From: Candidatus Babeliales bacterium
Lineage (GTDB): Bacteria; Babelota; Babeliae; Babelales; JANWKD01
DNA length: 64,000 nucleotides
Reading direction: 5' to 3'
Assembly (NCBI GenBank): GCA_963722075.1
Contig: CAVRJM010000001.1
Span: 480,001 to 544,000 of the forward strand
Within the stretch, counting starts at the first letter, position 1, and every line of letters begins with the position of its first letter. A model generated the notes under the pieces. The model had not been told where the DNA came from. It worked only from the letters and a program-made list of their open reading frames with translations, and searched no databases. Of the stretch, positions 7,933 through 62,195 are shown piece by piece. Both the position numbers and the translations under genes were made by a program.

Positions 7933-9321
7933 TTATCGATTGATTTCTTGTTCCAATCTTTTTATCTCTTTATTGAAGGTTACATCATTTTGTAAGTAAT
8001 TTTCTATCTTATTGATTGCATGAAGTACCGTAGTATGATCTTTCCTCCCCAAAAAAAGGCCTATTTCATGCAATGATTTGTTTGTTAATTTTTTCATAAG
8101 ATACATAGCAAGCTGCCTCACTAAAGATAATTTTTTATCACGACCTTGAGAACGCAGATCTTGTAAAGAATAGGAATAATGTTTTGTTAAACATTTAATT
8201 ATTCTATTAAAATCTACTATTATTTCTTTAGCTTCATTATTGCGCATTAATAATTTTTTACTGAGTTCTATGGTAATCGGTTGATTGGTAAGCGCCGCAT
8301 ATGCCGTAATGCGAATCAAGGCCCCTTCTAATTCACGAATATTAGACATCACCCGTGCTGCAATAAAATAGAGCACGTCATCCGATATTTCTTGATTTTG
8401 CATTTCAAGTTTTCTTTTTAAAATCGCTATTTTGGTTTCAGTCGTAGGTACCTGAATATCGGTTACCAATCCCCATTCAAAGCGAGAACGTAATCGTTCA
8501 GCAAGACCGTTAATACAGGCAGGATCTGAATCACTTGAAAATACAATTTGTTTATGTGATTCATAGAGCATATTAAAAATATGAAAAAATGCTTCTTGGG
8601 TTTGTTCTTTATTAGAAATAAATTGTACATCGTCAATAAGTAAGACATCAATCTCAGTATATTTTTCTTTAAATTGAGAAACTTTATCAAATCGAATAGC
8701 ATTTATAAATTCATTAACAAAATGATCAGCGGTTTGATACAAAATTTCAGTTTTTTTATTGCGCAATTTAATTTCATTACCAATAGCATGTAATAGATGT
8801 GTTTTACCAAGACCTGATCCGCCATAAATGAATAGCGGGTTATACAGTTTTCCGATTTTTTCAGTTACGGCATGAGCTGCTGCATAGGCCAATTGATTGC
8901 TGGGGCCTACCACAAAACTATCAAATTGATAATTTTTATTAATATAACTTTTTTGTTTTTCATAATGCTTTTTTAACGAACTATTTTTTTTTATCGTAAT
9001 ACTAAAATCACGTGTAGCAACTGCTGGTATAATAGCAGGCTCTGTACCTGCTGCCATTTTCTCATCAGGATAATGATTATCAAGAAAAATAACACTTATT
9101 TTATCAACATTTAATAATCTGCTCAGATGTTGCTGAAATAAATTAAGATAATTAGATTTGATCCATTCTTTAATGAATAGGTTTGGTGCTTTAAGATACA
9201 CAATTTTTTCAAATGCATCCCATTGTGACAAGCAGACCGCTTTGAACCAAGTATGAACTACATGGCTCCCCGCTTCTTGAGCAACAATTTTTAAAAATTC
9301 TTCCCAAATTGAATCAATCAC
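7933..9321 (-). CDS. dnaA: Chromosomal replication initiator DnaA
   Basis: YNPLFIYGGSGLGKTHLLHA, LLIDDVQF, RLRSRFEWGL, NIRELEGAL and the helix-turn-helix GRKDHTTVLHA. Confidence 0.98.
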   Translation of the reverse strand: MIDSIWEEFLKIVAQEAGSHVVHTWFKAVCLSQWDAFEKIVYLKAPNLFIKEWIKSNYLNLFQQHLSRLLNVDKISVIFLDNHYPDEKMAAGTEPAIIPAVATRDFSITIKKNSSLKKHYEKQKSYINKNYQFDSFVVGPSNQLAYAAAHAVTEKIGKLYNPLFIYGGSGLGKTHLLHAIGNEIKLRNKKTEILYQTADHFVNEFINAIRFDKVSQFKEKYTEIDVLLIDDVQFISNKEQTQEAFFHIFNMLYESHKQIVFSSDSDPACINGLAERLRSRFEWGLVTDIQVPTTETKIAILKRKLEMQNQEISDDVLYFIAARVMSNIRELEGALIRITAYAALTNQPITIELSKKLLMRNNEAKEIIVDFNRIIKCLTKHYSYSLQDLRSQGRDKKLSLVRQLAMYLMKKLTNKSLHEIGLFLGRKDHTTVLHAINKIENYLQNDVTFNKEIKRLEQEINR

Positions 9322-37473: not shown

Positions 37474-39312
37474 TTATTGAATTTTTACAGGAACGCTTAA
37501 TAACCCAGCAGCCCAAAGAGGTACTGTTATATTTCTATCAAAATAATTATTTCTTAAATACCAACCCAAAGCAACAGCACTCGTTACGTAAAACCCATAG
37601 GCCGGATAAGAATTAAATACTTTCTTAAGCGAATATAAACCAGGTTTTATAAGAGGTTTCATATAATAGGTATATTTTTGTTTTATGAATTTTGAACATC
37701 TTGATGGTTTATTGCCTACTGCTCCTTCATGGGCTTCAAAATCAAAAAGTGGTTCATCATAATCAAAAATATAATTATTTAAACTACAAGTAACAATTGT
37801 TTTAGAATGTTCTAAAGCCAACTTGTTTGTTAACAATTTACTCAATTCATCCTCAGCAAAATCAATAGTTCCCGAATCATATCCACCATCTTGCAAATCT
37901 TTTATCTCTTTCTTTTTTTGAACTATCTGTTTTTCAATATCCTTGATACGGTCAGGAATCATTTCCAATAATCGTTTTTGTAAATGTGGAATTCCGACCC
38001 CCTTTAACTTTTGATTGTCAGTTAAATTTGAATGGCTATTTGAAGAGCTTGCCTGCTCACTTCCAGATTGGTCTTGATCAGTTTGGGAAGTAAGGTCAAC
38101 TTCTTGTATTTTTTGTTCATCATCGGTAGATGATTCTTTCTCCTTCCCTTTTCCTTTTTCGCCCGATAAACTCACAATATTATTCCTAATAGTTAAAGAA
38201 GAGGTATCCCTATCAATTTCATATATTTCTTTATCAGGTTCAATTGGGGGGATATGGTTGGCTTCTCTCTCTGCAAGGCCAGTTGCTTCATTAATTAATG
38301 ATCCCAATTGAGCAGCAGTAAACCCACAGGTATAATAATAAGCTAATTTGGGTAATAATTCATAAGCGCTCTTATACATTATACGTGAACGCGCTTGCGA
38401 CTTTAAAATTTTCAATCGTGTTTTAGGCCCGGGTAGTCCAAATTTAACTAATTCTAACCTGCCTTCGCGAAATAACGCAGGATCAATTCGAGCTAAATAA
38501 TTAGTTGCAAAAAAAAGATGTACTTTAGGCGATAATCGATGTGGTATAGCATCCAAAAAGTTATTTATTCCATTATGATTATGCAAAGCAGATTGGTTAT
38601 CACGCGAACCCAATGAATCGGCTTCATCTATTAAAACGAGAGTATCGCCTTTTTCTTCCGCTAAATGATTTAGTTCTTTAAATATATCATCAAAAGCAAC
38701 GCTATCGGAGCCAACAAAAATTTTAGTGGTAAAATCATTACCTTTTAACGCAACAAAGGGGATTTGTAAACGCCCAGCAATTTTTTCTGCTACGGTAGTT
38801 TTTCCAGTTCCCGGCAAACCATAGGCCATTATTCCAGGGGGAAGATCATGACCAAAATCCTGATATTTACTATCATTTCTTTCCTTATACACTTGCCATA
38901 ATGTCTTAGGTTTTTGTATACGGTTCTCTAACATAAGAAACCAACGCAGTGCGCCCTCGGAAGGAATAGCAAAAGTAGTATCCTGTTTTGGAATATACCA
39001 ATCCTTAACTTTAGTTTTATATCCTTCACTTACTTCCATTAGTTTCTTTATGGAGTATTGCAATATTGCAGTCGATCCAACTTGAATAGTCTGTTGTTTC
39101 AAAATATCAAATAAAGAAATTCCCGTATTTACTGTTGAATAAGTAAACAAATCACGCACAGTCATAGCAACAGGCGAATAAAGTGTTAAATCTGGTTTTT
39201 TAGCAATATCTTTCTGAAAAGAACTGTAATCCATTGCATAAGATAACGGCTGATTGCATAACTGAATACAGAATATAAGAAGAAAAAATCTATTAATTAT
39301 TTTTTTAGTCAT
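37474..39312 (-). CDS. Secreted AAA+ ATPase (FtsH/CDC48-type AAA module, no protease domain)
   Basis: GLPGTGKT Walker A, LVLIDEAD Walker B and ATNYLARIDPALFREGR SRH. Signal peptide and C-terminal TM segment. Confidence 0.88.
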   Translation of the reverse strand: MTKKIINRFFLLIFCIQLCNQPLSYAMDYSSFQKDIAKKPDLTLYSPVAMTVRDLFTYSTVNTGISLFDILKQQTIQVGSTAILQYSIKKLMEVSEGYKTKVKDWYIPKQDTTFAIPSEGALRWFLMLENRIQKPKTLWQVYKERNDSKYQDFGHDLPPGIMAYGLPGTGKTTVAEKIAGRLQIPFVALKGNDFTTKIFVGSDSVAFDDIFKELNHLAEEKGDTLVLIDEADSLGSRDNQSALHNHNGINNFLDAIPHRLSPKVHLFFATNYLARIDPALFREGRLELVKFGLPGPKTRLKILKSQARSRIMYKSAYELLPKLAYYYTCGFTAAQLGSLINEATGLAEREANHIPPIEPDKEIYEIDRDTSSLTIRNNIVSLSGEKGKGKEKESSTDDEQKIQEVDLTSQTDQDQSGSEQASSSNSHSNLTDNQKLKGVGIPHLQKRLLEMIPDRIKDIEKQIVQKKKEIKDLQDGGYDSGTIDFAEDELSKLLTNKLALEHSKTIVTCSLNNYIFDYDEPLFDFEAHEGAVGNKPSRCSKFIKQKYTYYMKPLIKPGLYSLKKVFNSYPAYGFYVTSAVALGWYLRNNYFDRNITVPLWAAGLLSVPVKIQ

Positions 39313-39746: not shown

Positions 39747-41508
39747 TTAGTAATAACTACTAGTTGCTGCCTTCATTCCTAAATAATATTTCATAAACCA
39801 ATATGTACCTGCTATACCAGCTGTGCCGGTATATGTCATAAGTGCAGGCGTAGAGAGAAAGATCTTCTTACTCCATCGTGCGGGAGCACAGATATAAGGG
39901 TGAAATAAAATTTTCCTATAACCAGTTAATCGCTCTTCAGATTTAATAAAGGATATTTCTGGCTGGATAACTTCCTCTCCTGCTTCCCTGACTACCCAAC
40001 GCCTACGGGGCTCTTTGGTACTAGATGATGAAGCTTCAGCATTATCCAGTATATTTTGACCAGCTATCAGCGCTTCTTCAAGGGAAGGACAAGGATCTGG
40101 TTCCAATATGCTTTGAGCAGCTTTTAGCAACATTTCCTTTTCTTCATCATCAGTCAATGAAGCAATTTCCGCAACATCTAATAGTTTTTCTTTCCCTTTA
40201 TCCTTTTTTTCTACTCCTTTATATTTTGCATGATCATTTTTTCTCTTAATATCATAAAGAATTAATGCCTTAACGTTTTCTTCAGCTTCATTAAGACTAT
40301 TTACATATGCTTCAATTTCTTCTTTGCTGTTCTTTACAATACTCTAAAGAAACACTATTATAAACACCTTCTTTTTTCTTAATTAATTCTGCATAGCCAT
40401 TAGCATGGCGCATTAAATCTTTTTTAATTCTTGGCATTAACTTGATAAAATTTTCTCTTAAATGTCTAATTTGCATTCCACCACATCCTTCTGTTTTAGC
40501 TTGATCATCAGCATCATTAAAAAGATCAGAAAGATCTCTATATGCAAAACCATTAGTCAAAAAAGTTAAATTCTCAAGCTCTTCATAAGCACTAGAATAC
40601 ATAGGATATAATCGAGCGAATTGTAATAGCACCTTTTTCCGATCATTATAATTAGGTAATTTCATTTTAATTTCTCGAAACCGGCGAGAAAATGCAGTAT
40701 CTAATAAAAAAGGAAAATTAGTTGATGCAATTATTGTAACATTCGTTGATAATTTAGGAAGTTTAGTTAGCAAACTACTAATTACATTACGGCTTTTTGT
40801 ATCAGATTTTGAATCACCCGACCTCATACCAATCCCATCTACTTCATCTAGTAATACAATAACTTTTTTATTTTCACCTTTTGCCTTTTTTGCAACTTTC
40901 TCTATATTATCAATAATATTTTTGGTAAAAAAAATCCCTTCATTAACCTGCAAATTAGCAAAATCTGTTGCTTCATATTCCAAATAATAAGAATTAGTTT
41001 GGGCAGCAATTTGTTTTACTATGCTTGATTTTCCTAATCCTGGAGGGCCGCTTAATAAATAATGTTTTCTGCGTTGATATAATTCATTAGAACTATTTAT
41101 AGTCGTTTGATTAATATCAAGGTGAATAATACTCTTAATAATATCCTTGATTGGTTTAGAAAGATAATAAGCAGGATCGATCGAAGGTTTTTCTAGTTTT
41201 GTTTGTATGGTAGTTTTCCATTTATGGTACCATTCAGCAGACGCCTGAGAAACTACCGTATTATATGAAAGCATAGTAGTATGAGCTGCAATATTAAATG
41301 CCAAAGGAAGTCCATAGTACAATCCTATATGGGCCCCCACTTTTAACCCCTTCATCCATAATGGTTCTGGATTCGCAGCAGCCGTTCCTACATAATCGCC
41401 AAGATAAGAACCAACACCTTTATTATCCATGGTATATGATAATGGCATACTAAGTACTTGAGTACATAAAACAAAAAGAATGAATTTATTAATTATTTTT
41501 TTAGTCAT
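39747..41508 (-). pseudogene. Secreted AAA+ ATPase paralog, frameshifted near 40325
   Basis: GPPGLGKS, VLLDEVD and ASTNFPFLLDTAFSRRF. The frame of 39747..40157 is open back to about 40325 (KEEIEAYVNSL..KDKGKEKLLD). Confidence 0.8.
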
Positions 41509-48855: not shown

Positions 48856-49506
48856 ATGTATAAACAATTATTTGCCATTCTTATTTCATTATCTTTGTGC
48901 TTTTCTTCAGATGCAAAATTTACCCTATTTAGGGAACAACCAAAAGTTGAGATTGAAAAAATCATAAAGCAGGATTATAACCCGTTGGTATTCCTTGGAA
49001 TCGAGTTCGGGTGTGTAGCAATAGCTGTTACCGGGTATTATGCATATAAATGCTACAAACAATATCAGCTTGATTGTAAACCGGCACGCGACCTCGTTCA
49101 AGAATCAAGAGATACTTTAAAGCGAATTAGACAAATCCATAATGCATTTTTAGAACAACCTAATAGCTCCTTAGGCATAGATATTCAACACAAAATGATT
49201 TCATCTGATAATTTTAAAAAGATCGTTATTGAAGAATATAACGGCTATTCTTATCCTTTTGTCAATTGCAAAAAATCTTTAGAAAAATCAATCAACGAAT
49301 GCCAAACCATTTTAGAACAATTAGAAAGAAGAATTATAAGAATTAAAGATTGCATAAGTGATCATGATGAATATATCCCTAAACTGGAAGCTTTAGAACT
49401 AAAATACGATAGATTGGTTAATATTTTAACAATCATAAAAAATGAAGTGGAACATAGTTATGAATATCAAATTGAACAAAATATTTTAAATATTCCACGT
49501 CGATAA
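48856..49506 (+). CDS. Secreted coiled-coil protein, tandem paralog A
   Basis: TAGGGACATTATGTATAAACAA start shared with 49533. Contains KPARDL, INEC..ILE.LERRI and KNEV..SYEY. Confidence 0.8.
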   Translation: MYKQLFAILISLSLCFSSDAKFTLFREQPKVEIEKIIKQDYNPLVFLGIEFGCVAIAVTGYYAYKCYKQYQLDCKPARDLVQESRDTLKRIRQIHNAFLEQPNSSLGIDIQHKMISSDNFKKIVIEEYNGYSYPFVNCKKSLEKSINECQTILEQLERRIIRIKDCISDHDEYIPKLEALELKYDRLVNILTIIKNEVEHSYEYQIEQNILNIPRR

Positions 49507-49532
49507 AAAATATAAAACTATATAGGGACATT

Positions 49533-50231
49533 ATGTATAAACAAATATTTACTCTTATTATTTCACTTTCTTTAATATCCTCTTCCAGCGCAGAATTTAC
49601 TTTATTTAAAAAAACCCAGGTATATGATAAGCCATCTCCTCTTGATAATTGTTGCTTAAAGCCGTTAGCTTTCACCATTGCCGGTGTTGCAACCATCGGC
49701 CTAGTAAGCGCGGGTTATCAGTTTATTAAATGTTATTATTTAGATAAAAAGCCGGCACGGGAACTTATTAATGAATCGCGCGATGCATTAAAGCGTATTA
49801 AACAAATACATAATGCTTTATTATGCCAACCGGTGATTTCACAACTTCCTGAAGGTCAAGAAAGAATGGTTGCGGAGTTCAATTTCAAGAAAACAATTAC
49901 AAATACTTATGAGGAGCGGCATCCATTCATTACATGCAAGAACGACTTAAGAGATTCGATCAATGAATGCATAACGATTTTAGAAAAATTAGAACGTCGC
50001 ATTGATAGAATAAAGGATGGCAAAAATGATCATAAGGGATATTTACCTAAATTAGAAAGATTAAAAGTAGAATGTTATTCATTAATAGATTCCTTAACTG
50101 CAATAAAGAATGAAGTAGTTAATTGTTATGAATATACCAATGAATGTAATATGTCCCGTACATCCGGTGTAGCGACACAAGCACTCATTTATTCACATGT
50201 TATTCCAATACTACTTACATGTCCTATATAA
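49533..50231 (+). CDS. Secreted coiled-coil protein, tandem paralog B
   Basis: Colinear similarity to 48856..49506. Confidence 0.8.
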   Translation: MYKQIFTLIISLSLISSSSAEFTLFKKTQVYDKPSPLDNCCLKPLAFTIAGVATIGLVSAGYQFIKCYYLDKKPARELINESRDALKRIKQIHNALLCQPVISQLPEGQERMVAEFNFKKTITNTYEERHPFITCKNDLRDSINECITILEKLERRIDRIKDGKNDHKGYLPKLERLKVECYSLIDSLTAIKNEVVNCYEYTNECNMSRTSGVATQALIYSHVIPILLTCPI

Positions 50232-50637: not shown

Positions 50638-53600
50638 ATGAATCATATCAAACAAAACCTAATACGCTTTTTTTTCATTATTCTTTTTACTCCTATAAAT
50701 ACCGCTGCTATGCAAATTGCAGCCGAATTGCTTAATTATTTTGCAGCCACACCAACTCTTATTGCATTACCTGCATGGTATACATTCAATCAAAATGATT
50801 ACGGAAGCTATAATGTTACTATTGATGTTCCTAGTCGCACCTTTCACGCACCTCAAACCACACCCCAACTAGCACCTACAACACCACAAACACCGTATTT
50901 TACAAGAGACATGCACCGCATGTTTTCCTCACAAATGCAAAATACTGACCCGCTTACCTTTAGTTCCTTGCATGATTCAGGACGTTATTTTTCCTTTACC
51001 ATACAACCAATGTCTTATAGGCCATGTGTAGAGCCTTCATCGATAACAAAACAACAACGAATTGAGCAGCATCTCATTACAGAAGATATTATGCAAGGAT
51101 TACAAAACCCTCAGCTTCCCGAGCGTGGGCCAGTTTCTTTAGGCGTTTCCGATTCGCTGTATGCTCAATATCAGTTTCAACGAAATCAAATTGTCAACAA
51201 TTGTATCCAGGCATTACGCAAATCCCCTACTGCATGTCTTAATTTGGTTCATTCACGTTATATTTTGAATGATGCATCTTATTCTCGGCAATTGAACGAG
51301 ATTCTGGAAACAACCATCTCAAAGTTTTGTGATGCCTTTTATGATAAGCAAGGTGCCGCAACCTTACCTGATAAAAAAGAATACTATCCATTAACAGAAG
51401 TGTTATGCACGTACATGAGGCAGTACCTTACTGATGAACAACTTATCGAATATATTCATCGTGAATGTGCCGATTTAGCATATTTTAAGCAGTTTGAACG
51501 CTACATAACAGGACGCCTAGAACCTATTGCTTTCAATTTCAAATTGATTGCAGCTGCTTTTAAAGAATTGGTGCAATCAAGTGATTATTTTGAAAAACGA
51601 AAAAAACTAATTCTTGAAAATTCCTTTAATCAAAACTTACAACGTATTCAAAAGTTATGTCAAAATGAACAATTTGCTCAAGCACATGCTTTTATCGAGC
51701 ATTTAAAAAAAGATAACCCTTTAAAACAACAATTTTTAAATGCATTTGCACAAGAATTAATAGCCAATTCAACCCCATTACAAGCACTCAAATCAATCGA
51801 TCCTCGATTACTTACTTCGCCGCTTATTTATTTTATGCGCCATGGTATGATGGAGCGCTTATCCAAAGACCGGGATCAATATAGTACCGCTCAATTACTC
51901 TTTAGGACGTTATATACCCAACCACAAAATTATTGGTATAAAAAAGCTGATATGGAAATTTATCCATGTGATCAGCTTGAACACGAATGTATGGTAGCAT
52001 ACAAAGCATTATGTAATGAATATGGGTTGCCTTTGTGCTTTTCTTATAATCAACAAGCCTTATCACAGGGTTTTGCTGCAAAAGAACAAATCATTTCTTT
52101 GCAACATTTACGCGAACGATCTTTTCTTTTTAAGTTCGCTACCTTAAAATGCCCACCACATCTAAATGACCTTGATTTTCAACAAGCAATAATTACCGGA
52201 TTATCATATCTACAAGCAGCGGTGAAAAATCCAGATCGGTCCTATAATTATACCGTTCTTGCCGCTGCAATATATTATGCATTAACCCATAAACATACTT
52301 CGCAAGCGATTCTAAATTGTAATTCTTTTCTATTACCGGAACAATCCGATCTGTTTTCACTACACGAATTTTTACTTGAGCAAGCTATTATGTTCATCCG
52401 GATCAATAATGATCGCAATCCTGATCAACCTTCTTTATTTTCTTCGCATCAAGCAACTATTGATAATGCCCTTTATGCCGAAAGTCAACTCTGGCAAAAT
52501 GCATTACTTGAAGATGAGTATCCACAACGACAAGCGTGCGACGATATTTGTTCTATTGCAGAACATCTATATTTTGATGAACTATCATACATAGTTCCCC
52601 ATTCAAAATCATCAATACCGATTAATTCATCTCAAAGATCAATAGAATTAGTAAATGCGGATGATAGTCTCACTACACTCATTACATTGCATATAGGGCC
52701 TATAAGCAATTTTGAATTTAATCAGTATGAACAAGCTGCTATTCACCGGCAAGACAAAGAATTAATACCGAGCCTTAATACCATCAAAGCAATTAACCTT
52801 TATAATACACTTAATTCTACTATCGAGCTCTTTCAAGATGCATTACTTCTATGGTATGGAGCACCGCTCTTAAATGAGCGAGAAGCAGCTGCGATAGCAA
52901 TACAGTGTGGAGAAATTGCTGCTTTATATATCCCGGAAAATAAAACAAATCATTTTGCAGAACTATTTACTAGCATCGGACAACACATTCTCAATTTTGC
53001 TCAAGTAGCTCCGCAGCTTATGGTCAGCAAATACGTAACGCTTCCAGTATATTGGGCTCTGGCTCACCAAAAAATAAGTGGTGGAGAGCTTTTTGATACC
53101 GCGCTTAAAAATGCAATCAGTGCCTTTATTCCACTGCGCAGAGCAATACAATTATTAGATTACAATTTAGGGAATGATGACAATTTCATTCAATTGCCCA
53201 ACTCATTACTGGATATAAAGGAAATTTGCTCTTTCTTAGAACAACAAAAACCATTGCCCGGATGCGCTGCGCAAGTAACGGCTAATTTACGATTACTTGG
53301 TTGCATGGCCGGTATTAATGACAAACCAACCCTCGAATCGTTCAATCATTGTCTGCACCATTATCTTGCTCAGTTTTTTATAAATAATCCTGATAAAGCC
53401 GCTGAGGAGCACTTTGCTTCCTGCATTCTTTCTAATAAACTATTTAGTATTGCCGCCGGTGCTTTCAAATTAATGCAGGAGTTTGAGACGGAACTGAGTG
53501 GATGGGAACGGTATCTACCCTTCTTTAAAGATGGCGCTATAGTGCTTAATTACGCACAAGAATTATTACTTGATACGCAAAATCAGCTTGCTCATTTTGT

Positions 53601-54042
53601 CCATTTTACGCTGATTCCTGCTATTGGTTGGGCGAATGATATAGTAATTCAACCAGGAGAACGCGTTCCATGGATGTTTGCGCCATTTGATTTTAAGAAA
53701 AACAATAATATTAAAAAACCAAAAAAAGATAAGGGGAAAGAAAAGGAGGAAACTCCGCAGCAGAAAAGGGAACGTGAAAAGAACGAACGCAAACAAAAAA
53801 GAGAAAATTGGAAGGAAACTCTTAAGAAAAACGTGCAAAAAGAACTTGAAAAACACGGCTATAGGTATCGCAAAGATCCCCCCTTTGATACGCATGGACA
53901 ACCAGCATATCAACATATTAAAACCGGGGAATGGATTACTCTTGATGTTGATGGCCATAATGGAGGTGTTTGGAAGAAGTTCGATAGAAGAGGCAAAAAT
54001 AGAAAAACTTTGGATAAAGATTTTAATCCCATAGGCGATTAA
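50638..54042 (+). CDS. Polymorphic toxin with C-terminal Ntox21 / CdiA-CT(ECL)-like RNase domain
   Basis: C-terminus HGQPAY..WITLDVDGHNGGVWK..RKTLDKDFNPIGD matches the Ntox21 pattern. Sec-type signal and a Lys/Glu-rich linker. Immunity genes follow. Confidence 0.88.
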   Translation: MNHIKQNLIRFFFIILFTPINTAAMQIAAELLNYFAATPTLIALPAWYTFNQNDYGSYNVTIDVPSRTFHAPQTTPQLAPTTPQTPYFTRDMHRMFSSQMQNTDPLTFSSLHDSGRYFSFTIQPMSYRPCVEPSSITKQQRIEQHLITEDIMQGLQNPQLPERGPVSLGVSDSLYAQYQFQRNQIVNNCIQALRKSPTACLNLVHSRYILNDASYSRQLNEILETTISKFCDAFYDKQGAATLPDKKEYYPLTEVLCTYMRQYLTDEQLIEYIHRECADLAYFKQFERYITGRLEPIAFNFKLIAAAFKELVQSSDYFEKRKKLILENSFNQNLQRIQKLCQNEQFAQAHAFIEHLKKDNPLKQQFLNAFAQELIANSTPLQALKSIDPRLLTSPLIYFMRHGMMERLSKDRDQYSTAQLLFRTLYTQPQNYWYKKADMEIYPCDQLEHECMVAYKALCNEYGLPLCFSYNQQALSQGFAAKEQIISLQHLRERSFLFKFATLKCPPHLNDLDFQQAIITGLSYLQAAVKNPDRSYNYTVLAAAIYYALTHKHTSQAILNCNSFLLPEQSDLFSLHEFLLEQAIMFIRINNDRNPDQPSLFSSHQATIDNALYAESQLWQNALLEDEYPQRQACDDICSIAEHLYFDELSYIVPHSKSSIPINSSQRSIELVNADDSLTTLITLHIGPISNFEFNQYEQAAIHRQDKELIPSLNTIKAINLYNTLNSTIELFQDALLLWYGAPLLNEREAAAIAIQCGEIAALYIPENKTNHFAELFTSIGQHILNFAQVAPQLMVSKYVTLPVYWALAHQKISGGELFDTALKNAISAFIPLRRAIQLLDYNLGNDDNFIQLPNSLLDIKEICSFLEQQKPLPGCAAQVTANLRLLGCMAGINDKPTLESFNHCLHHYLAQFFINNPDKAAEEHFASCILSNKLFSIAAGAFKLMQEFETELSGWERYLPFFKDGAIVLNYAQELLLDTQNQLAHFVHFTLIPAIGWANDIVIQPGERVPWMFAPFDFKKNNNIKKPKKDKGKEKEETPQQKREREKNERKQKRENWKETLKKNVQKELEKHGYRYRKDPPFDTHGQPAYQHIKTGEWITLDVDGHNGGVWKKFDRRGKNRKTLDKDFNPIGD

Positions 54043-54048
54043 TTAATT

Positions 54049-54540
54049 ATGAAACAATTTAAAATTAACATACTTACTGATCGACCAGAAATTATCAGAG
54101 ATGAACGCTCTCATATTGGTGAAATAGTTATCGGTAATTTTGAAGAGATATTTCAAATACCATTGTGCTTCTGGCGATTAATAGATTATAAAAAACAATG
54201 GAAAAGTGCCCTTGAGCATATTAAAACCCATGATTCAAGCTGTTTTATCGTTTCTATACATGCTACTGCTAAGAATTTGATCAATGACCCAGACGATTTG
54301 GATTTACAATTATTTATATTATATAAAGTTGGTAATAAAATATTTATTCAAAATCGTTTTTTTGGCTGGCTTCGATTAAGAGAAACCAGGAAAATCAAAA
54401 AATTACCTCCCTTCGATGCAAAATCATGTTACTCATATCTTCCTCCTCGAGAAACAGTTACCCCAGAAGGCGAAAAGATTTCTGAATGGAGTATCAGTGT
54501 CAGTGATTTAAAGCATGCGCAAGTAGGAGGCAAGTATTAA
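54049..54540 (+). CDS. CdiI(ECL)-like immunity protein 1 (cognate)
   Basis: IVIGNFEE.FQIPLCFWRLIDYKKQW..SCF..LYK...IFIQN..RETVTPEGEKISEW. Starts 6 nt after the toxin stop. Confidence 0.85.
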   Translation: MKQFKINILTDRPEIIRDERSHIGEIVIGNFEEIFQIPLCFWRLIDYKKQWKSALEHIKTHDSSCFIVSIHATAKNLINDPDDLDLQLFILYKVGNKIFIQNRFFGWLRLRETRKIKKLPPFDAKSCYSYLPPRETVTPEGEKISEWSISVSDLKHAQVGGKY

Positions 54541-54744
54541 AAATTCCTATTTTCTAATTTAACTGTACAAAAATAATTTTTACTATACACTTTAAAATAA
54601 TAATTTATAATTTATTTTTCTGCAGGAGACCTTATCATGACTCCAAACATTTCTTCTAACTAACATCCCTAAAAATACAACCTTATCTTTCAACTTTTCT
54701 TTTTATAAAGAAAAATAATAATTGGATTATTCTGCAGAATATTT

Positions 54745-55314
54745 ATGAAAACTTTCAAAATTGAATTGGTTACCAAAAAACCAAAAAAAATTAATGGTAC
54801 ATGGTCTCATTTTGGTAAGATTACTATCGGAACCTTCGTGGAACGCTTTCAAATTCCTTTAGATTATTGGTCCATAGAAGAATATATAAAGCAATGGGAA
54901 GAAGGCCTTAATAGAATTAAAGCACATGATTCATCATGCTTCGTTTCCAAAGTATGGAGCCCTGAGTCTGACCCATATGTTTTTATGTATGTCGCCTATA
55001 AAGTAAAAAAACGTATTTTTTTTCAGGAACATGCAACTCTTCATATGGATGTTTATGAAGAGAACCTTCCGCCTTTCGATGCTCAAACCTGCTATTTATA
55101 TGTGAGAGAAAGAACCCCAGGTCGCAACAAAAAAGAAGATGAATTATTCTTAGGTCGTAATATTAATGATCTTACGGAAGAAGAAGCGACACAAATAAAG
55201 CCTTCTGAATGGAACATTATGCTTAGAAATCTTGATCATGCTCGAGTAGGTAAATTTGGTGATTGTTGTCCTCCAAATGAAGAGTGTTACCTTAAACTGA
55301 AAAAATGGCTATAA
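54745..55314 (+). CDS. CdiI(ECL)-like immunity protein 2
   Basis: FQIPLDYWSIEEYIKQW, HDSSCF, LPPFD and SEW. Carries an insertion and a Cys-rich tail. Confidence 0.85.
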   Translation: MKTFKIELVTKKPKKINGTWSHFGKITIGTFVERFQIPLDYWSIEEYIKQWEEGLNRIKAHDSSCFVSKVWSPESDPYVFMYVAYKVKKRIFFQEHATLHMDVYEENLPPFDAQTCYLYVRERTPGRNKKEDELFLGRNINDLTEEEATQIKPSEWNIMLRNLDHARVGKFGDCCPPNEECYLKLKKWL

Positions 55315-55359
55315 ATTCCTTAAAATTAAACGAAAATAATTAATCAAAATAATTAATCA

Positions 55360-55863
55360 ATGAAACGATTTGAAATTAATATACTTTCTGATGAACCGGA
55401 GATTATTAATGGTGAGCAGTCTCACAGGGGAGAATTATTTATTGGGAATTTTGTAGAAGAATTTCAAATTCCTCTCACTGTCTGGCGACTTAAAGATTAT
55501 AAAAAACAATGGCACGAAGCACTTGAGCGCATCAAAACTCATGATTCCAGTTGCTTTGTTACTTTTATCCGTAGAGAGGCCGCCCCTTTAGATTTACTAA
55601 AAGATCCCAATGATTTAGAAGTGCTCCTCTGGGCTTTATATAAAGTTGATACTAAAATTATTATACAAAAACATTATTTTGATAGCCACTTGTTACAAAG
55701 AACACGATCAACCTACAACCTTCCTCCCTTTAGCGCAGAAACTTGTTATTCATATCTTGATCAACGTGAAACGATCAAAAATGCCAATAAACTTGCGGCT
55801 GGAAAGAAGGTTGCTGAATGAGGTATTTCTGTTAAGGATCTAAAACATACTCAAGTAGGAGAA
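55360..55863 (+). pseudogene. CdiI(ECL)-like immunity protein 3 with TGA at the conserved Trp (55819-55821)
   Basis: KKVAE*GISVKDLKHTQVG aligns to EKISEWSISVSDLKHAQVG of paralog 1. Confidence 0.8.
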
Positions 55864-55872
55864 CTAACTGTG

Positions 55873-56019
55873 GGACGAGTGGCATATGAAAATCCTACCA
55901 CTCACAACCGAATCACTCTCGAAATTTGTGGCAATGATGGCCAATGGAAACTCTATGAAGGCAAAACTGGTGAACGATTAGCAACCTTAGATGAAGATGG
56001 GAATCAAATTGGCAGATAA
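55873..56019 (+). pseudogene. Degenerate orphan Ntox21-like toxin C-terminal tip
   Basis: In frame with immunity 3: RVAYENPTTHNRITLEICGNDGQWKLYEGKTGERLATLDEDGNQIGR*. Colinear with the intact toxin tip. Confidence 0.78.
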
Positions 56020-56023
56020 AATT

Positions 56024-56476
56024 TTGAAAACACTTGAAATAATGGTTCTTACCGATACACCCGAAAAATATGAAGGAGTTCCCTTCCATGTTGTTCTCCT
56101 CACCCTTGGTGATTATGAAGAATATATTGATATCCCCTTAAACTATTGGGACATTAAAGCGTATAAAAAACAATGGCACGAAGGTATTGAACGGTTAAAA
56201 ACATTTAATACATCATGCTTAGTAACTGCAGTGTGGCGGCGAGATCCCGATCCACTTATTTTTATATGGGAATTGTATAAAGAACAAAATACCATTTTTG
56301 TACACAATGCTATGATTACGTGGGAATTTAAAAAATACAGACCAGCTTTACCTCCTTTTGACAGCAACACCTGCTATGCCTATATTAATCCGCGCAAAAC
56401 GGTTACTGAAAATGGCGAAAAAATTTCTGAATGGAGCATTGAATTAGATGCCCTTAAACATGCTCGAGTACGGTAA
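56024..56476 (+). CDS. CdiI(ECL)-like immunity protein 4
   Basis: Likely TTG start (MKTLEI, matching the paralog starts). Contains IPLNYWDIKAYKKQW, FIWELY and RKTVTENGEKISEW. Confidence 0.85.
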   Translation: MKTLEIMVLTDTPEKYEGVPFHVVLLTLGDYEEYIDIPLNYWDIKAYKKQWHEGIERLKTFNTSCLVTAVWRRDPDPLIFIWELYKEQNTIFVHNAMITWEFKKYRPALPPFDSNTCYAYINPRKTVTENGEKISEWSIELDALKHARVR

Positions 56477-59782: not shown

Positions 59783-60676
59783 GTGCTTGCAAGTATGACC
59801 GGATTTGCATCAAAAATTATAGAAGTTCACACCAGTAACAATAATAAAGCATTTATTTCACTGATTTTAAAATCACTTAACTCACGATTTTTTGAGGCTT
59901 CGTGCAAATTGCCGCATGCATTGCAACCACTAGAAATTGAATTTATAAAAATGTTCAAAGAATCACTCCATCGGGGAAAGGTTACTTTTAATGTAACCGT
60001 AAGCAACCCGTTAATATTTAGTGGCCCCATTGAACCTTCTTTTTATATGGTTCAAAATTATTTACAAGCAATAGAAAATATTCAGCAAAAGTACGGCGTT
60101 AGCGGCACCATTACCATGAGCGATCTCTTAAAACTTCCTCATATTTTTATTGAAGAAGAATCGACACTTGATCAGGCGATCCATAATCTTATTATGACTA
60201 CAACGCGAGAGCTTATTACCATCTTATCTGATTCCCAACAAAAAGAAGGCGCACTGTTACAAAAAGATATTGAACAGCGGCTGGCTATTATTCTTACAAA
60301 AATCACTGAGATTGAAACGTTAGCAAGCGAATTGATAGTAAAGAATAATCTTGCGGTACAACAAAAATTAGCCAAATATGAACAAAGTTCTGCAGAGATT
60401 ATTGAATTAACTAAGCATCAACTCTATGCAGAATTAGAACGGATGGATATTCATGAAGAAATTATTAGGTTTAAAAGTCATTTAACGTTACTAAATAATT
60501 TCATTGCTTCAAAAGAAGTAGAAAAAGGTCGCCGTATTGATTTTACTTTGCAAGAATTAACGCGAGAGATTAATACCATTGGTGCTAAAACGGCTGATCC
60601 TTTAATTGGTTCCTTAGCAATCACCATCAAAGTAGAATTAGAAAAAATAAGGGAGCAGGCACAAAATATTGTTTAA
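59783..60676 (+). CDS. yicC: YicC/YloC family endoribonuclease
   Basis: SMTGFA, KSLNSRF, RGKV, DIHEEI.R, GRRIDF..QE..REINTIG and EKIREQAQN. Confidence 0.95.
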   Translation: MLASMTGFASKIIEVHTSNNNKAFISLILKSLNSRFFEASCKLPHALQPLEIEFIKMFKESLHRGKVTFNVTVSNPLIFSGPIEPSFYMVQNYLQAIENIQQKYGVSGTITMSDLLKLPHIFIEEESTLDQAIHNLIMTTTRELITILSDSQQKEGALLQKDIEQRLAIILTKITEIETLASELIVKNNLAVQQKLAKYEQSSAEIIELTKHQLYAELERMDIHEEIIRFKSHLTLLNNFIASKEVEKGRRIDFTLQELTREINTIGAKTADPLIGSLAITIKVELEKIREQAQNIV

Positions 60677-60698
60677 ATTCAAAAAAAGAGAGTTTTTA

Positions 60699-62195
60699 AT
60701 GAAAAAAATTATTGTTCTATTTTTATCAATCTCGGTAATGGCTGCTTATGCATTAGATATAGTAGAAGATTATGATCTGCAATCATATATTGCATCAGTC
60801 GAAGATACTATTACACGCGACTGCTCATTTTCAATTCAACAAATTACCCAATTTAATATTCCCTTTACCATTACCAATCCGGGTTTATATTGTTTAGCCC
60901 CCAATACCGCTTCAATAAGCCCAAGCCAAACCGGACGGCTAGTGGTAAGCTCAGGAACCGGCATTACCGTTAGCACCAGTAATGTTATTATTGATTTTAA
61001 TGACACTATTTTAGAAGGCCAAGGCGGTGCTACAGGAATACAGATTAGTAATGGCGTACAAAATGTTATTATTCGCAATGGTACCGTTCGTGCTATGACG
61101 CTTGCTGGGATTACCTTTAATAACATTGCTAATCAACAAACTGGTCCCATTATTCTTAGCAATATCACTTTGATGAATAACAGTATCGGCTTGAATACCG
61201 CTAATCCCTTTAACTTAGTTGCCAATAATATCCGTGCTTATTTTTCTACTAACACGGGATTTTTCGTAAATCAAGCAACCAATTGCTTATTTACCAATTG
61301 TATAAGCAATAACAATTCGGTAAATGGCTTCACCGTGCAAAATGCTAATTCAGTTACTTTCGTATCATGCTTTGCAGAAAGCAATTCAAATAATGGTTTC
61401 AATATTGTTGGCGTAGCTGGTTCTCAATTTATTAACTGTATAGCAAATAGAAATAAAACAGGCTTTCTACAAGTTAATGGTACTCTGACCAGCCAAGATG
61501 ATATTTTCAAAAACTGTATTGCACAACAAAACAATAACATCGGCTTTAATATTCAATTACAACAATCAATTCTTAGTCAATGCATTTCATCGTTAAATCT
61601 AACAGGATTTCAAATCAACGGCTCAAATAATACTATTACAGATTCAGTAGCTAATGATAATACCAATACCGGTTTTAACCTTATAGGAACTGCAAATCAA
61701 AGTAATCAATTTGAAGAATGCCATGCCCTGAATAATGGTTCGCATGGGTTTCAAACCATTGGTAACTTTAATAGCATTTTAGACTGTGTTTCAAAAAACA
61801 ATTCGGGTAATGGTATTGTACTCACTGGCACTGGATCAGAAATACAAAATTGTCATATAATAAATAATGGATTAAATGGGATTAATGTTAATGGCAGTGC
61901 TCATGTCATTTTATCAAATGTTATTGATACCCATAAATCGAGCGCAAGTACGCTCACCAGTGTAGGAATATTATTAGCAGTTACGGGCACATTTGGTAAC
62001 ACTGCGTCACTTAATGCCGTACGAAATAATTCACTGGTTAATAACACCGTAGGGATTAATAATCAAGGAATTGGCAATAAAATATATTCAAATTTTGCAA
62101 GCGCTAATACCACTGATTACATTGGCGTTCCCAATGTATCAGTTTCACCAACAGTAGCAACGCCAATTAACTTTACGGCTAATATTGCTGAATAA
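60699..62195 (+). CDS. Secreted right-handed parallel beta-helix repeat protein
   Basis: Signal MKKIIV, PFTITNPGLYCL, and repeated N-N-x-x-G-F / NC Asn ladders. Confidence 0.85.
   Translation: MKKIIVLFLSISVMAAYALDIVEDYDLQSYIASVEDTITRDCSFSIQQITQFNIPFTITNPGLYCLAPNTASISPSQTGRLVVSSGTGITVSTSNVIIDFNDTILEGQGGATGIQISNGVQNVIIRNGTVRAMTLAGITFNNIANQQTGPIILSNITLMNNSIGLNTANPFNLVANNIRAYFSTNTGFFVNQATNCLFTNCISNNNSVNGFTVQNANSVTFVSCFAESNSNNGFNIVGVAGSQFINCIANRNKTGFLQVNGTLTSQDDIFKNCIAQQNNNIGFNIQLQQSILSQCISSLNLTGFQINGSNNTITDSVANDNTNTGFNLIGTANQSNQFEECHALNNGSHGFQTIGNFNSILDCVSKNNSGNGIVLTGTGSEIQNCHIINNGLNGINVNGSAHVILSNVIDTHKSSASTLTSVGILLAVTGTFGNTASLNAVRNNSLVNNTVGINNQGIGNKIYSNFASANTTDYIGVPNVSVSPTVATPINFTANIAE

Follow-up and report, generated by a model that had tools for sequence, protein, structure and literature searches.

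A polymorphic toxin family of the Babelota

The subject of this work is a locus of a Candidatus Babeliales bacterium at positions 50638..56476 of the window, that is, of the 64 000-nucleotide stretch of DNA analysed here (assembly GCA_963722075.1, contig CAVRJM010000001.1, positions 480 001 to 544 000, forward strand). It codes for a toxin of 1134 amino acids (aa), composed of a predicted signal peptide, a helical carrier and an Ntox21 tip, and for four small immunity genes behind it. The carrier is uncatalogued and bears many different tips, defining a polymorphic toxin family that extends across the phylum Babelota. The original prediction for this locus, made from the DNA sequence, had inferred a toxin of this class; the class is now seen as one carrier with many tips (58 tips, forming 26 BLAST clusters). 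On balance, the locus is probably a polymorphic toxin–immunity cassette of this family, the toxin being likely exported by Sec and a type II secretion system (T2SS), and likely killing rival bacteria.

The open reading frames (ORFs) of the toxin and of the four small genes lie at the coordinates first given for them, and the shared motifs quoted for the small genes are found in their alignment. All the features described below are on the forward strand.

The Ntox21 tip

The toxin gene (50638..54042) ends in a domain (53869..54042; aa 1078–1134) that matches the Pfam family Ntox21 (PF15526) with 33 bits against a cut-off of 25 (E = 7.7e-8), and also matches 4ntq_A, the PDB entry of the CdiA-CT of Enterobacter cloacae (E = 8.8e-6). 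The original prediction had named Ntox21 and proposed a profile search as a check; both matches agree with it. The active site of the E. cloacae toxin, which cuts 16S rRNA at A1493/G1494, consists of D203, D205, H207 and K214 (PMC9086364). Counted from the 4ntq_A alignment, all four residues are identical in the toxin studied here (D1103, D1105, H1107 and K1113), whose tip is predicted to cleave 16S rRNA as the E. cloacae toxin does. As had been noted for the first five of them, the families FHA, Rhs, LXG, MafB, PAAR and HINT are missing from the toxin in a Pfam scan at E ≤ 1. A search with the tip for longer relatives returned one HINT–Ntox21 protein.

The immunity genes and the orphan tip

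All four small downstream genes match CdiI_N (PF18228) above the cut-off (37.6–82 bits), and gene 1 also matches 4ntq_B (E = 2.2e-7), in agreement with the resemblance to CdiI that had been proposed. They are 36–55% identical to one another, gene 3 being nearest to gene 1 (55%). Gene 1 (54049..54540) starts 6 nt 3' of the toxin stop codon and is, to judge from its sequence and position, the likely cognate antidote. Gene 2 (54745..55314) is an orphan immunity gene. Gene 3 (55360..55821) is truncated about 14 codons early by a TGA (55819–55821), located where its paralogues have the W of 'ISEW'. Beyond this stop, the same frame (55822..56019) encodes the rest of the CdiI C-terminus and then a degenerate orphan Ntox21-like tip of 50 aa (about 55870–56019). 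The orphan tip is 42% identical to the main tip over these 50 aa (E = 1.2e-4) and matches the profile of Babelota tips (E = 8.8e-4); it has no Pfam Ntox21 match and lacks three of the four active-site residues. Gene 4 (56024..56476), the partner of the orphan tip, probably starts, by alignment, at the TTG at 56024, 4 nt past that tip, and not at 55991 as given by the ORF finder. A contig from another study is identical over 55864–56082; the match begins 3' of the TGA of gene 3.

The array thus reads: toxin, cognate immunity gene, two orphans, dead tip and the immunity gene of the dead tip. The original description of the locus had its five ORFs in place; it had overlooked that a stop codon interrupts gene 3 and that the frame leads on into a degenerate orphan tip. 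Genes 2–4 may protect against Ntox21 variants of relatives, or may be relics of displaced tips. Arrays of orphan immunity genes have already been described (PMC9086364).

The carrier

The conserved core of the carrier corresponds to aa 137–660 of the toxin (51046..52617). It was defined as about 480 shared positions from 35 fetched loci, and 38 cores were aligned. No Pfam or NCBIfam family, including MafB-N (DUF1020), was found for these cores at E ≤ 0.01, and the best match of the core profile among PDB sequences has E = 0.01. The AlphaFold2 model of the core is all-alpha (pLDDT 83.7, pTM 0.71). Foldseek returned nothing for it at E ≤ 0.001; the best VIA match is to designed helical repeats (Z 10.9, rmsd 4.0, 170 aligned residues), with residues 1–330 barely covered. 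A second helical region (aa 641–1040; 52558..53757), common to genus-level paralogues, is modelled with a pLDDT of 57.8, and its best fold matches are generic bundles (Z 10.6, rmsd 4.2, 143 aligned).

Another pre-toxin module, about 260 aa long and ending in TxEG, is common to core-bearing Babelota toxins and to HINT-type or core-less ones (loci L233, L234, L237, L240, L203, L046, L058 and L051); it is a candidate translocation domain. The region of aa 641–1040 is possibly a diverged form of this module. For aa 641–1030 the hhalign score was 4.6% in direct comparison and 18% to a bridging subfamily (itself at 86%), too weak a link for the relationship to be taken as established.

Distribution of the carrier family

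The genome of this strain (1.47 Mb, four contigs, 99% complete) contains the N-terminal region of the toxin three more times (tblastn), each time in a gene with a different or unrelated tip and a small gene behind it. One of these paralogues carries an Ntox35 tip above the cut-off; the other two share a tip type that gives a weak CdiA_C_tRNase match, one of them being followed by an orphan tip–partner module and the other being split into two ORFs. A fifth, fragmentary copy of the carrier nearly duplicates part of one paralogue. Locus L001 (G000:C3:674-6368) comprises a paralogous toxin with its partner, an orphan tip with its partner and a further fragment, and a near copy of part of this locus lies at G000:C1:822998-824101. 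Locus L003 (G000:C1:161938-164793) holds a carrier-family gene in two ORFs (108 and 753 aa), without most of the core, and a partner gene.

The phylum was represented by 261 Babelota genomes, all of one order. A carrier profile built from six sequences found 27 of them, and the profile of 38 cores found 63, seven of which rest on E values above 1e-5. No core was found in any of the 401 genomes of the phylum to which an Aestuariivirga record (G265) belongs, nor in five other genomes, plasmids and phages; the range of the carrier outside Babelota is thinly tested. Word-indexed protein searches with the carrier, run with the single sequence and with an alignment (the latter limited to 7999 candidates), gave only the toxin itself among the matches listed, and were uninformative on its range since they missed known members. 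A search of the ESM Atlas gave no usable match.

Tips, partners and tip exchange

A further 20 loci from strong new matches were held out; 19 of them gave 20 members. A small non-secreted gene lies at most 35 nt 3' of the member in 18 of the 20 held-out cases and in 30 of the 38 evaluable training cases, compared with 5 of 81 long ORFs of the genome, a control that used ATG starts only and includes the genome's own family members. The Pfam cut-off was passed by 10 of the 57 tips scanned, eight being EndoU and two Ntox35 (training 6/37, with four EndoU and two Ntox35; held-out 4/20, all EndoU). No tip over the cut-off emerged when the 17 short ones were re-scanned. The partner is a CdiI_ImmP protein in 4 of 55 cases (3/36 training, 1/19 held-out).

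A tree of 36 carrier cores, each with 300 or more aligned positions and with a tip that falls in a cluster, contains well-supported clades in which tip types are mixed, including one that unites the toxin studied here with two others (support 99). Tip labels change 19 times on this tree, against a minimum of 10, yet less often than with shuffled labels (25.6), because kin share tips. Orphan tip–immunity modules are found at the toxin locus and at L001, L048, L075, L172, L236, L243 and L244. At L243 (G258:C5:395000-401925), L236 and L235, Ntox21 tips and CdiI genes alternate in arrays of about seven repeats, and there is a run of eight CdiI genes.

Export

The first 24 residues of the toxin (50638..50709), followed by Met25, are positive in our own hydrophobicity heuristic (not SignalP), in line with the probable signal peptide proposed earlier. 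Such a leader is present in 52 of the 63 long ORFs tested, a set that includes three non-members. A small residue and a methionine directly after the hydrophobic leader occur in 167 of 462 predicted secreted proteins of the genome and in 31 of 439 leaderless ORFs. This pattern may be an export signature of the lineage, and can cause gene callers to leave out the signal peptide.

Genes for type II secretion are present in the genome: two secretins that lie together in a cluster, two T2SSE ATPases and five pseudopilin-like motifs, of which four are grouped. The T2SS is reported to be core to the phylum (PMC4776705) and, in Babela, to be the sole secretion system (PMC4378268). Searches of the genome for markers of type III, IV and VI secretion, of tail sheaths and of TolC (Hcp, TrbI, FHIPEP, the tail sheath and OEP) found none of them, while the positive control of each matched. 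The T2SS is the likeliest route of toxin export. The original statement that no delivery machinery is recognisable holds for the neighbourhood of the toxin gene but was too strong for the genome as a whole. It was likewise overstated as to the class of toxin, which is already in the account of Zhang et al. 2012 (PMC3482391).

Organism and target

The named close relatives of the RuvB protein of this genome belong to Ca. Babeliales, Dependentiae or TM6, at about 66–79% identity among the best 80 relatives; many of these are labelled only in general terms ('bacterium', 'uncultured Pseudomonadota'), and seven from other named groups come last, at 49–51%. This agrees with the host-associated lineage first suspected. 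A strictly intracellular life is described for Babelota (PMC12172432), and the host of this bacterium is presumably a protist, to judge from its phylum.

Ntox21 occurs in 32 of the 261 Babelota genomes and CdiI_N in 30; 24 have both and six have CdiI_N alone. CdiI arrays reach up to ten copies, and Ntox21 is also borne by other Babelota carriers, some of them of HINT type, to which the core profile gives no match. In G001, a sister species (93% complete), three CdiI_N genes are intact, with no toxin next to them and no Ntox21 match in the genome, and these form one clade with the four genes described above (97/86). They show a dN of 0.2 and a dS of 0.7–0.9 (non-synonymous and synonymous divergence), giving a dN/dS of about 0.2–0.3, which spans the whole history of the paralogues and not solely the period after toxin loss. 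The pattern fits a defence against incoming toxins of relatives that act on bacterial ribosomes: since relatives keep conserved CdiI arrays without the toxin, the threat appears to be bacterial. Of the two targets initially considered, the toxin-free arrays favour co-infecting bacteria, and mitochondrial ribosomes found no support here.

Proposed mechanism and competing explanations

In the proposed mechanism, the shared helical carrier, bearing a swappable tip, would be exported by Sec and pass through the secretin of the T2SS. It would then act as a receptor-binding and entry device. The toxin has no HINT domain, and its tip would be freed by an outside protease to cleave 16S rRNA of the target at the site cut by the E. 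cloacae toxin. The victims would be competing bacteria, for the most part other Babelota, that live in the same protist host or close to it.

Several points weigh against this reading, of which export, entry, killing and target are the parts that we infer. The signal peptide is a probable one, recognised by our own heuristic, and the database copy of the toxin has 1110 aa, the length expected for a start at Met25, which drops the signal peptide. Secretins are near-universal (258 of the 261 genomes) and the carrier is present in a quarter of the genomes, so that no specific linkage between carrier and T2SS is apparent; one Babelota secretin may, moreover, serve a type IV pilus (PMC4776705). No CdiB/ShlB gene adjoins the toxin, and a search of the genome for ShlB was empty, with its control silent too. 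Past its N-terminus no 19-residue segment of the toxin exceeds a hydrophobicity of 1.6 and no strong hydrophobic hairpin was seen, and its mechanism of entry is not evident. The motif RxG[ST], tabulated for Ntox21 by Zhang et al. 2012 (PMC3482391), is altered in the tip, its G being replaced, as it is in some other Babelota Ntox21 tips. Finally, a toxin aimed at the host would need immunity genes for self-protection too.

The same antibacterial toxin might remain periplasmic or at the cell surface after Sec export and be delivered by outer-membrane vesicles, by an Omp85-type transporter or by lysis of the producing cell, with the carrier as an anchor or a vesicle cargo tag, as has been proposed for MafB-N. 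Putative outer-membrane vesicles of Chromulinavorax have been reported in the food vacuole (PMC6561590), anchoring has been proposed for N-domains of this kind (Zhang et al. 2012; PMC3482391), and the genome encodes two long Omp85 proteins (920 and 967 aa), one of which is of TamA length. The lack of a visible carrier–T2SS linkage is also in line with such a route. On the other side, we noticed neither a lipobox nor a conserved gene like MafA upstream in the listed family loci, where no systematic search for them was made, and it is the T2SS that is reported as the secretion system of the phylum (PMC4776705, PMC4378268). We regard this route as unlikely.

A toxin secreted into the protist, where the tip would cut mitochondrial or cytosolic rRNA and CdiI would merely shield the producer, is in our view very unlikely. 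The signal-peptide-plus-methionine pattern that the toxin shares with many secreted proteins of the genome would suit such an effector, as would the replication of Chromulinavorax wrapped in a host mitochondrion (PMC6561590) and the example of Amoebophilus APD1 and APD2, which have the same architecture and are predicted to be directed at the host (PMC3482391). However, the parasite needs host ATP (PMC6561590), so that damage to mitochondrial translation looks costly; the tips that were identified belong to RNase families known from interbacterial systems, and each has a partner gene of its own; no tip of the ubiquitin system or of ankyrin type is listed among the 57 scanned; and CdiI arrays that persist under purifying selection without a toxin would be pointless unless incoming toxin enters the bacterial cytoplasm. 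Slightly less likely still is a selfish or decaying cassette that starts at Met25, is not exported and persists as an addiction module or a relic. The 1110-aa database copy would agree with it, as would the truncated gene 3, the dead orphan tip and the split or fragmentary paralogues, and a role in addiction was put forward for the polymorphic toxins that a Bodo symbiont carries (PMC8163844). Against it, the hydrophobic leader is kept across the family at 13–26% identity, and addiction requires neither a 900-aa carrier nor repeated exchange of tips. The toxin gene itself shows 17 synonymous and 8 non-synonymous differences among the 25 strain differences listed, with 24 more outside that listing. 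An exported antibacterial toxin, likely using the T2SS, is the reading that we retain as probable.

Relation to known systems

The closest counterpart is the CdiA-CT/CdiI pair of E. cloacae ATCC 13047 (4NTQ; PF15526, PF18228), with the same toxin domain, active site, immunity family and gene order, and with orphan modules downstream. This contact-dependent growth inhibition (CDI) system differs in having FHA repeats, a TPS domain and an adjacent cdiB, all missing here, where the 1134-aa toxin has a helical carrier with all-alpha models. Also known are toxins that combine a signal peptide with a lineage-specific N-domain, namely MafB-N, Microscilla-N and APD1/2, and more were expected by the authors of PMC3482391, who list Ntox21 under the T2SS. 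MafB of Neisseria, Microscilla-N and APD1/APD2 of Amoebophilus share with the present family a signal peptide (a probable one in Babelota), a constant lineage-restricted N-domain, variable toxins and presumed export by Sec and the T2SS (PMC3482391). Unlike theirs, the Babelota carrier matches no Pfam or NCBIfam model and spans a phylum, not a genus or species, and no MafA-like partner or lipobox was noticed. Babelota tips come with immunity-type genes, in contrast to the APD effectors; APD and Microscilla-N are set apart by their descriptions only.

Other Babelota Ntox21 toxins take the form of a signal peptide with HINT (PT-HINT above the cut-off in one of six carriers scanned, weak HINT in two), whereas the toxin studied here lacks HINT and the HINT-type carriers do not match the core profile. 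Ca. Bodocaedibacter vickermanii, an endosymbiont of a protist, likewise has arrays of toxins, immunity genes and orphans with novel N-termini, and has a type VI secretion system (T6SS) (PMC8163844); no Hcp was found in the Babeliales genome, and the likeness is one of description only. Effectors of the Rhs, T6SS and contractile injection types are distinguished by Rhs and PAAR, not found in the toxin, and by Hcp and the sheath, not found in the genome.

We found no earlier report of polymorphic toxins in Babelota in the open literature, supplements and subscription papers lying outside the search. The main texts of PMC4776705, PMC6561590 and PMC12172432 do not use the word 'toxin', and that of PMC4378268 uses it for toxin–antitoxin pairs; the secretion discussed in the genome papers, as far as their main texts go, is directed at the host only (PMC4776705, PMC4378268, PMC6561590). 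In Chromulinavorax, Sec signals are reported on 44% of the proteins (PMC6561590). The Ntox21/CdiI pair is ordinary and the class of signal peptide plus N-domain is known; what is new is the uncatalogued carrier and the family that it marks out across the phylum.

A toxin family in a quarter of the genomes, together with stockpiles of orphan immunity genes, suggests that Babelota often meet bacterial rivals. The carrier is also a marker domain for mining new toxin–immunity pairs, given the small share of tips that reach the Pfam cut-off, and it raises the question of how a Sec-exported nuclease enters another bacterium without parts of CDI, T6SS or type VII secretion systems. A wider interpretation, which we offer tentatively and hold to be doubtful, is that the carrier is a new self-sufficient delivery device for infighting of Babelota within a shared protist, in the absence of a contact-dependent injection machine. 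The family would then reflect a phylum-wide arms race of superinfection exclusion, and the roughly 20 tip clusters without a Pfam match would be undescribed antibacterial toxins.

Other features of the window

Promoter and terminator counts are at the level of shuffled sequence. A dnaA-like gene was recognised by eye at 7933–9321 of the window, and a switch in GC skew was not seen nearby. Directly 5' of the toxin, two tandem paralogous genes (48856–50231) code for secreted coiled-coil proteins, neither of which passes a Pfam cut-off. A secreted right-handed beta-helix protein of 508 aa is encoded at 60669–62195. Two secreted-looking proteins (37474–39312 and 40312–41508) have AAA-type P-loop motifs, read by eye, and AAA genes also adjoin several toxin loci of the carrier family.

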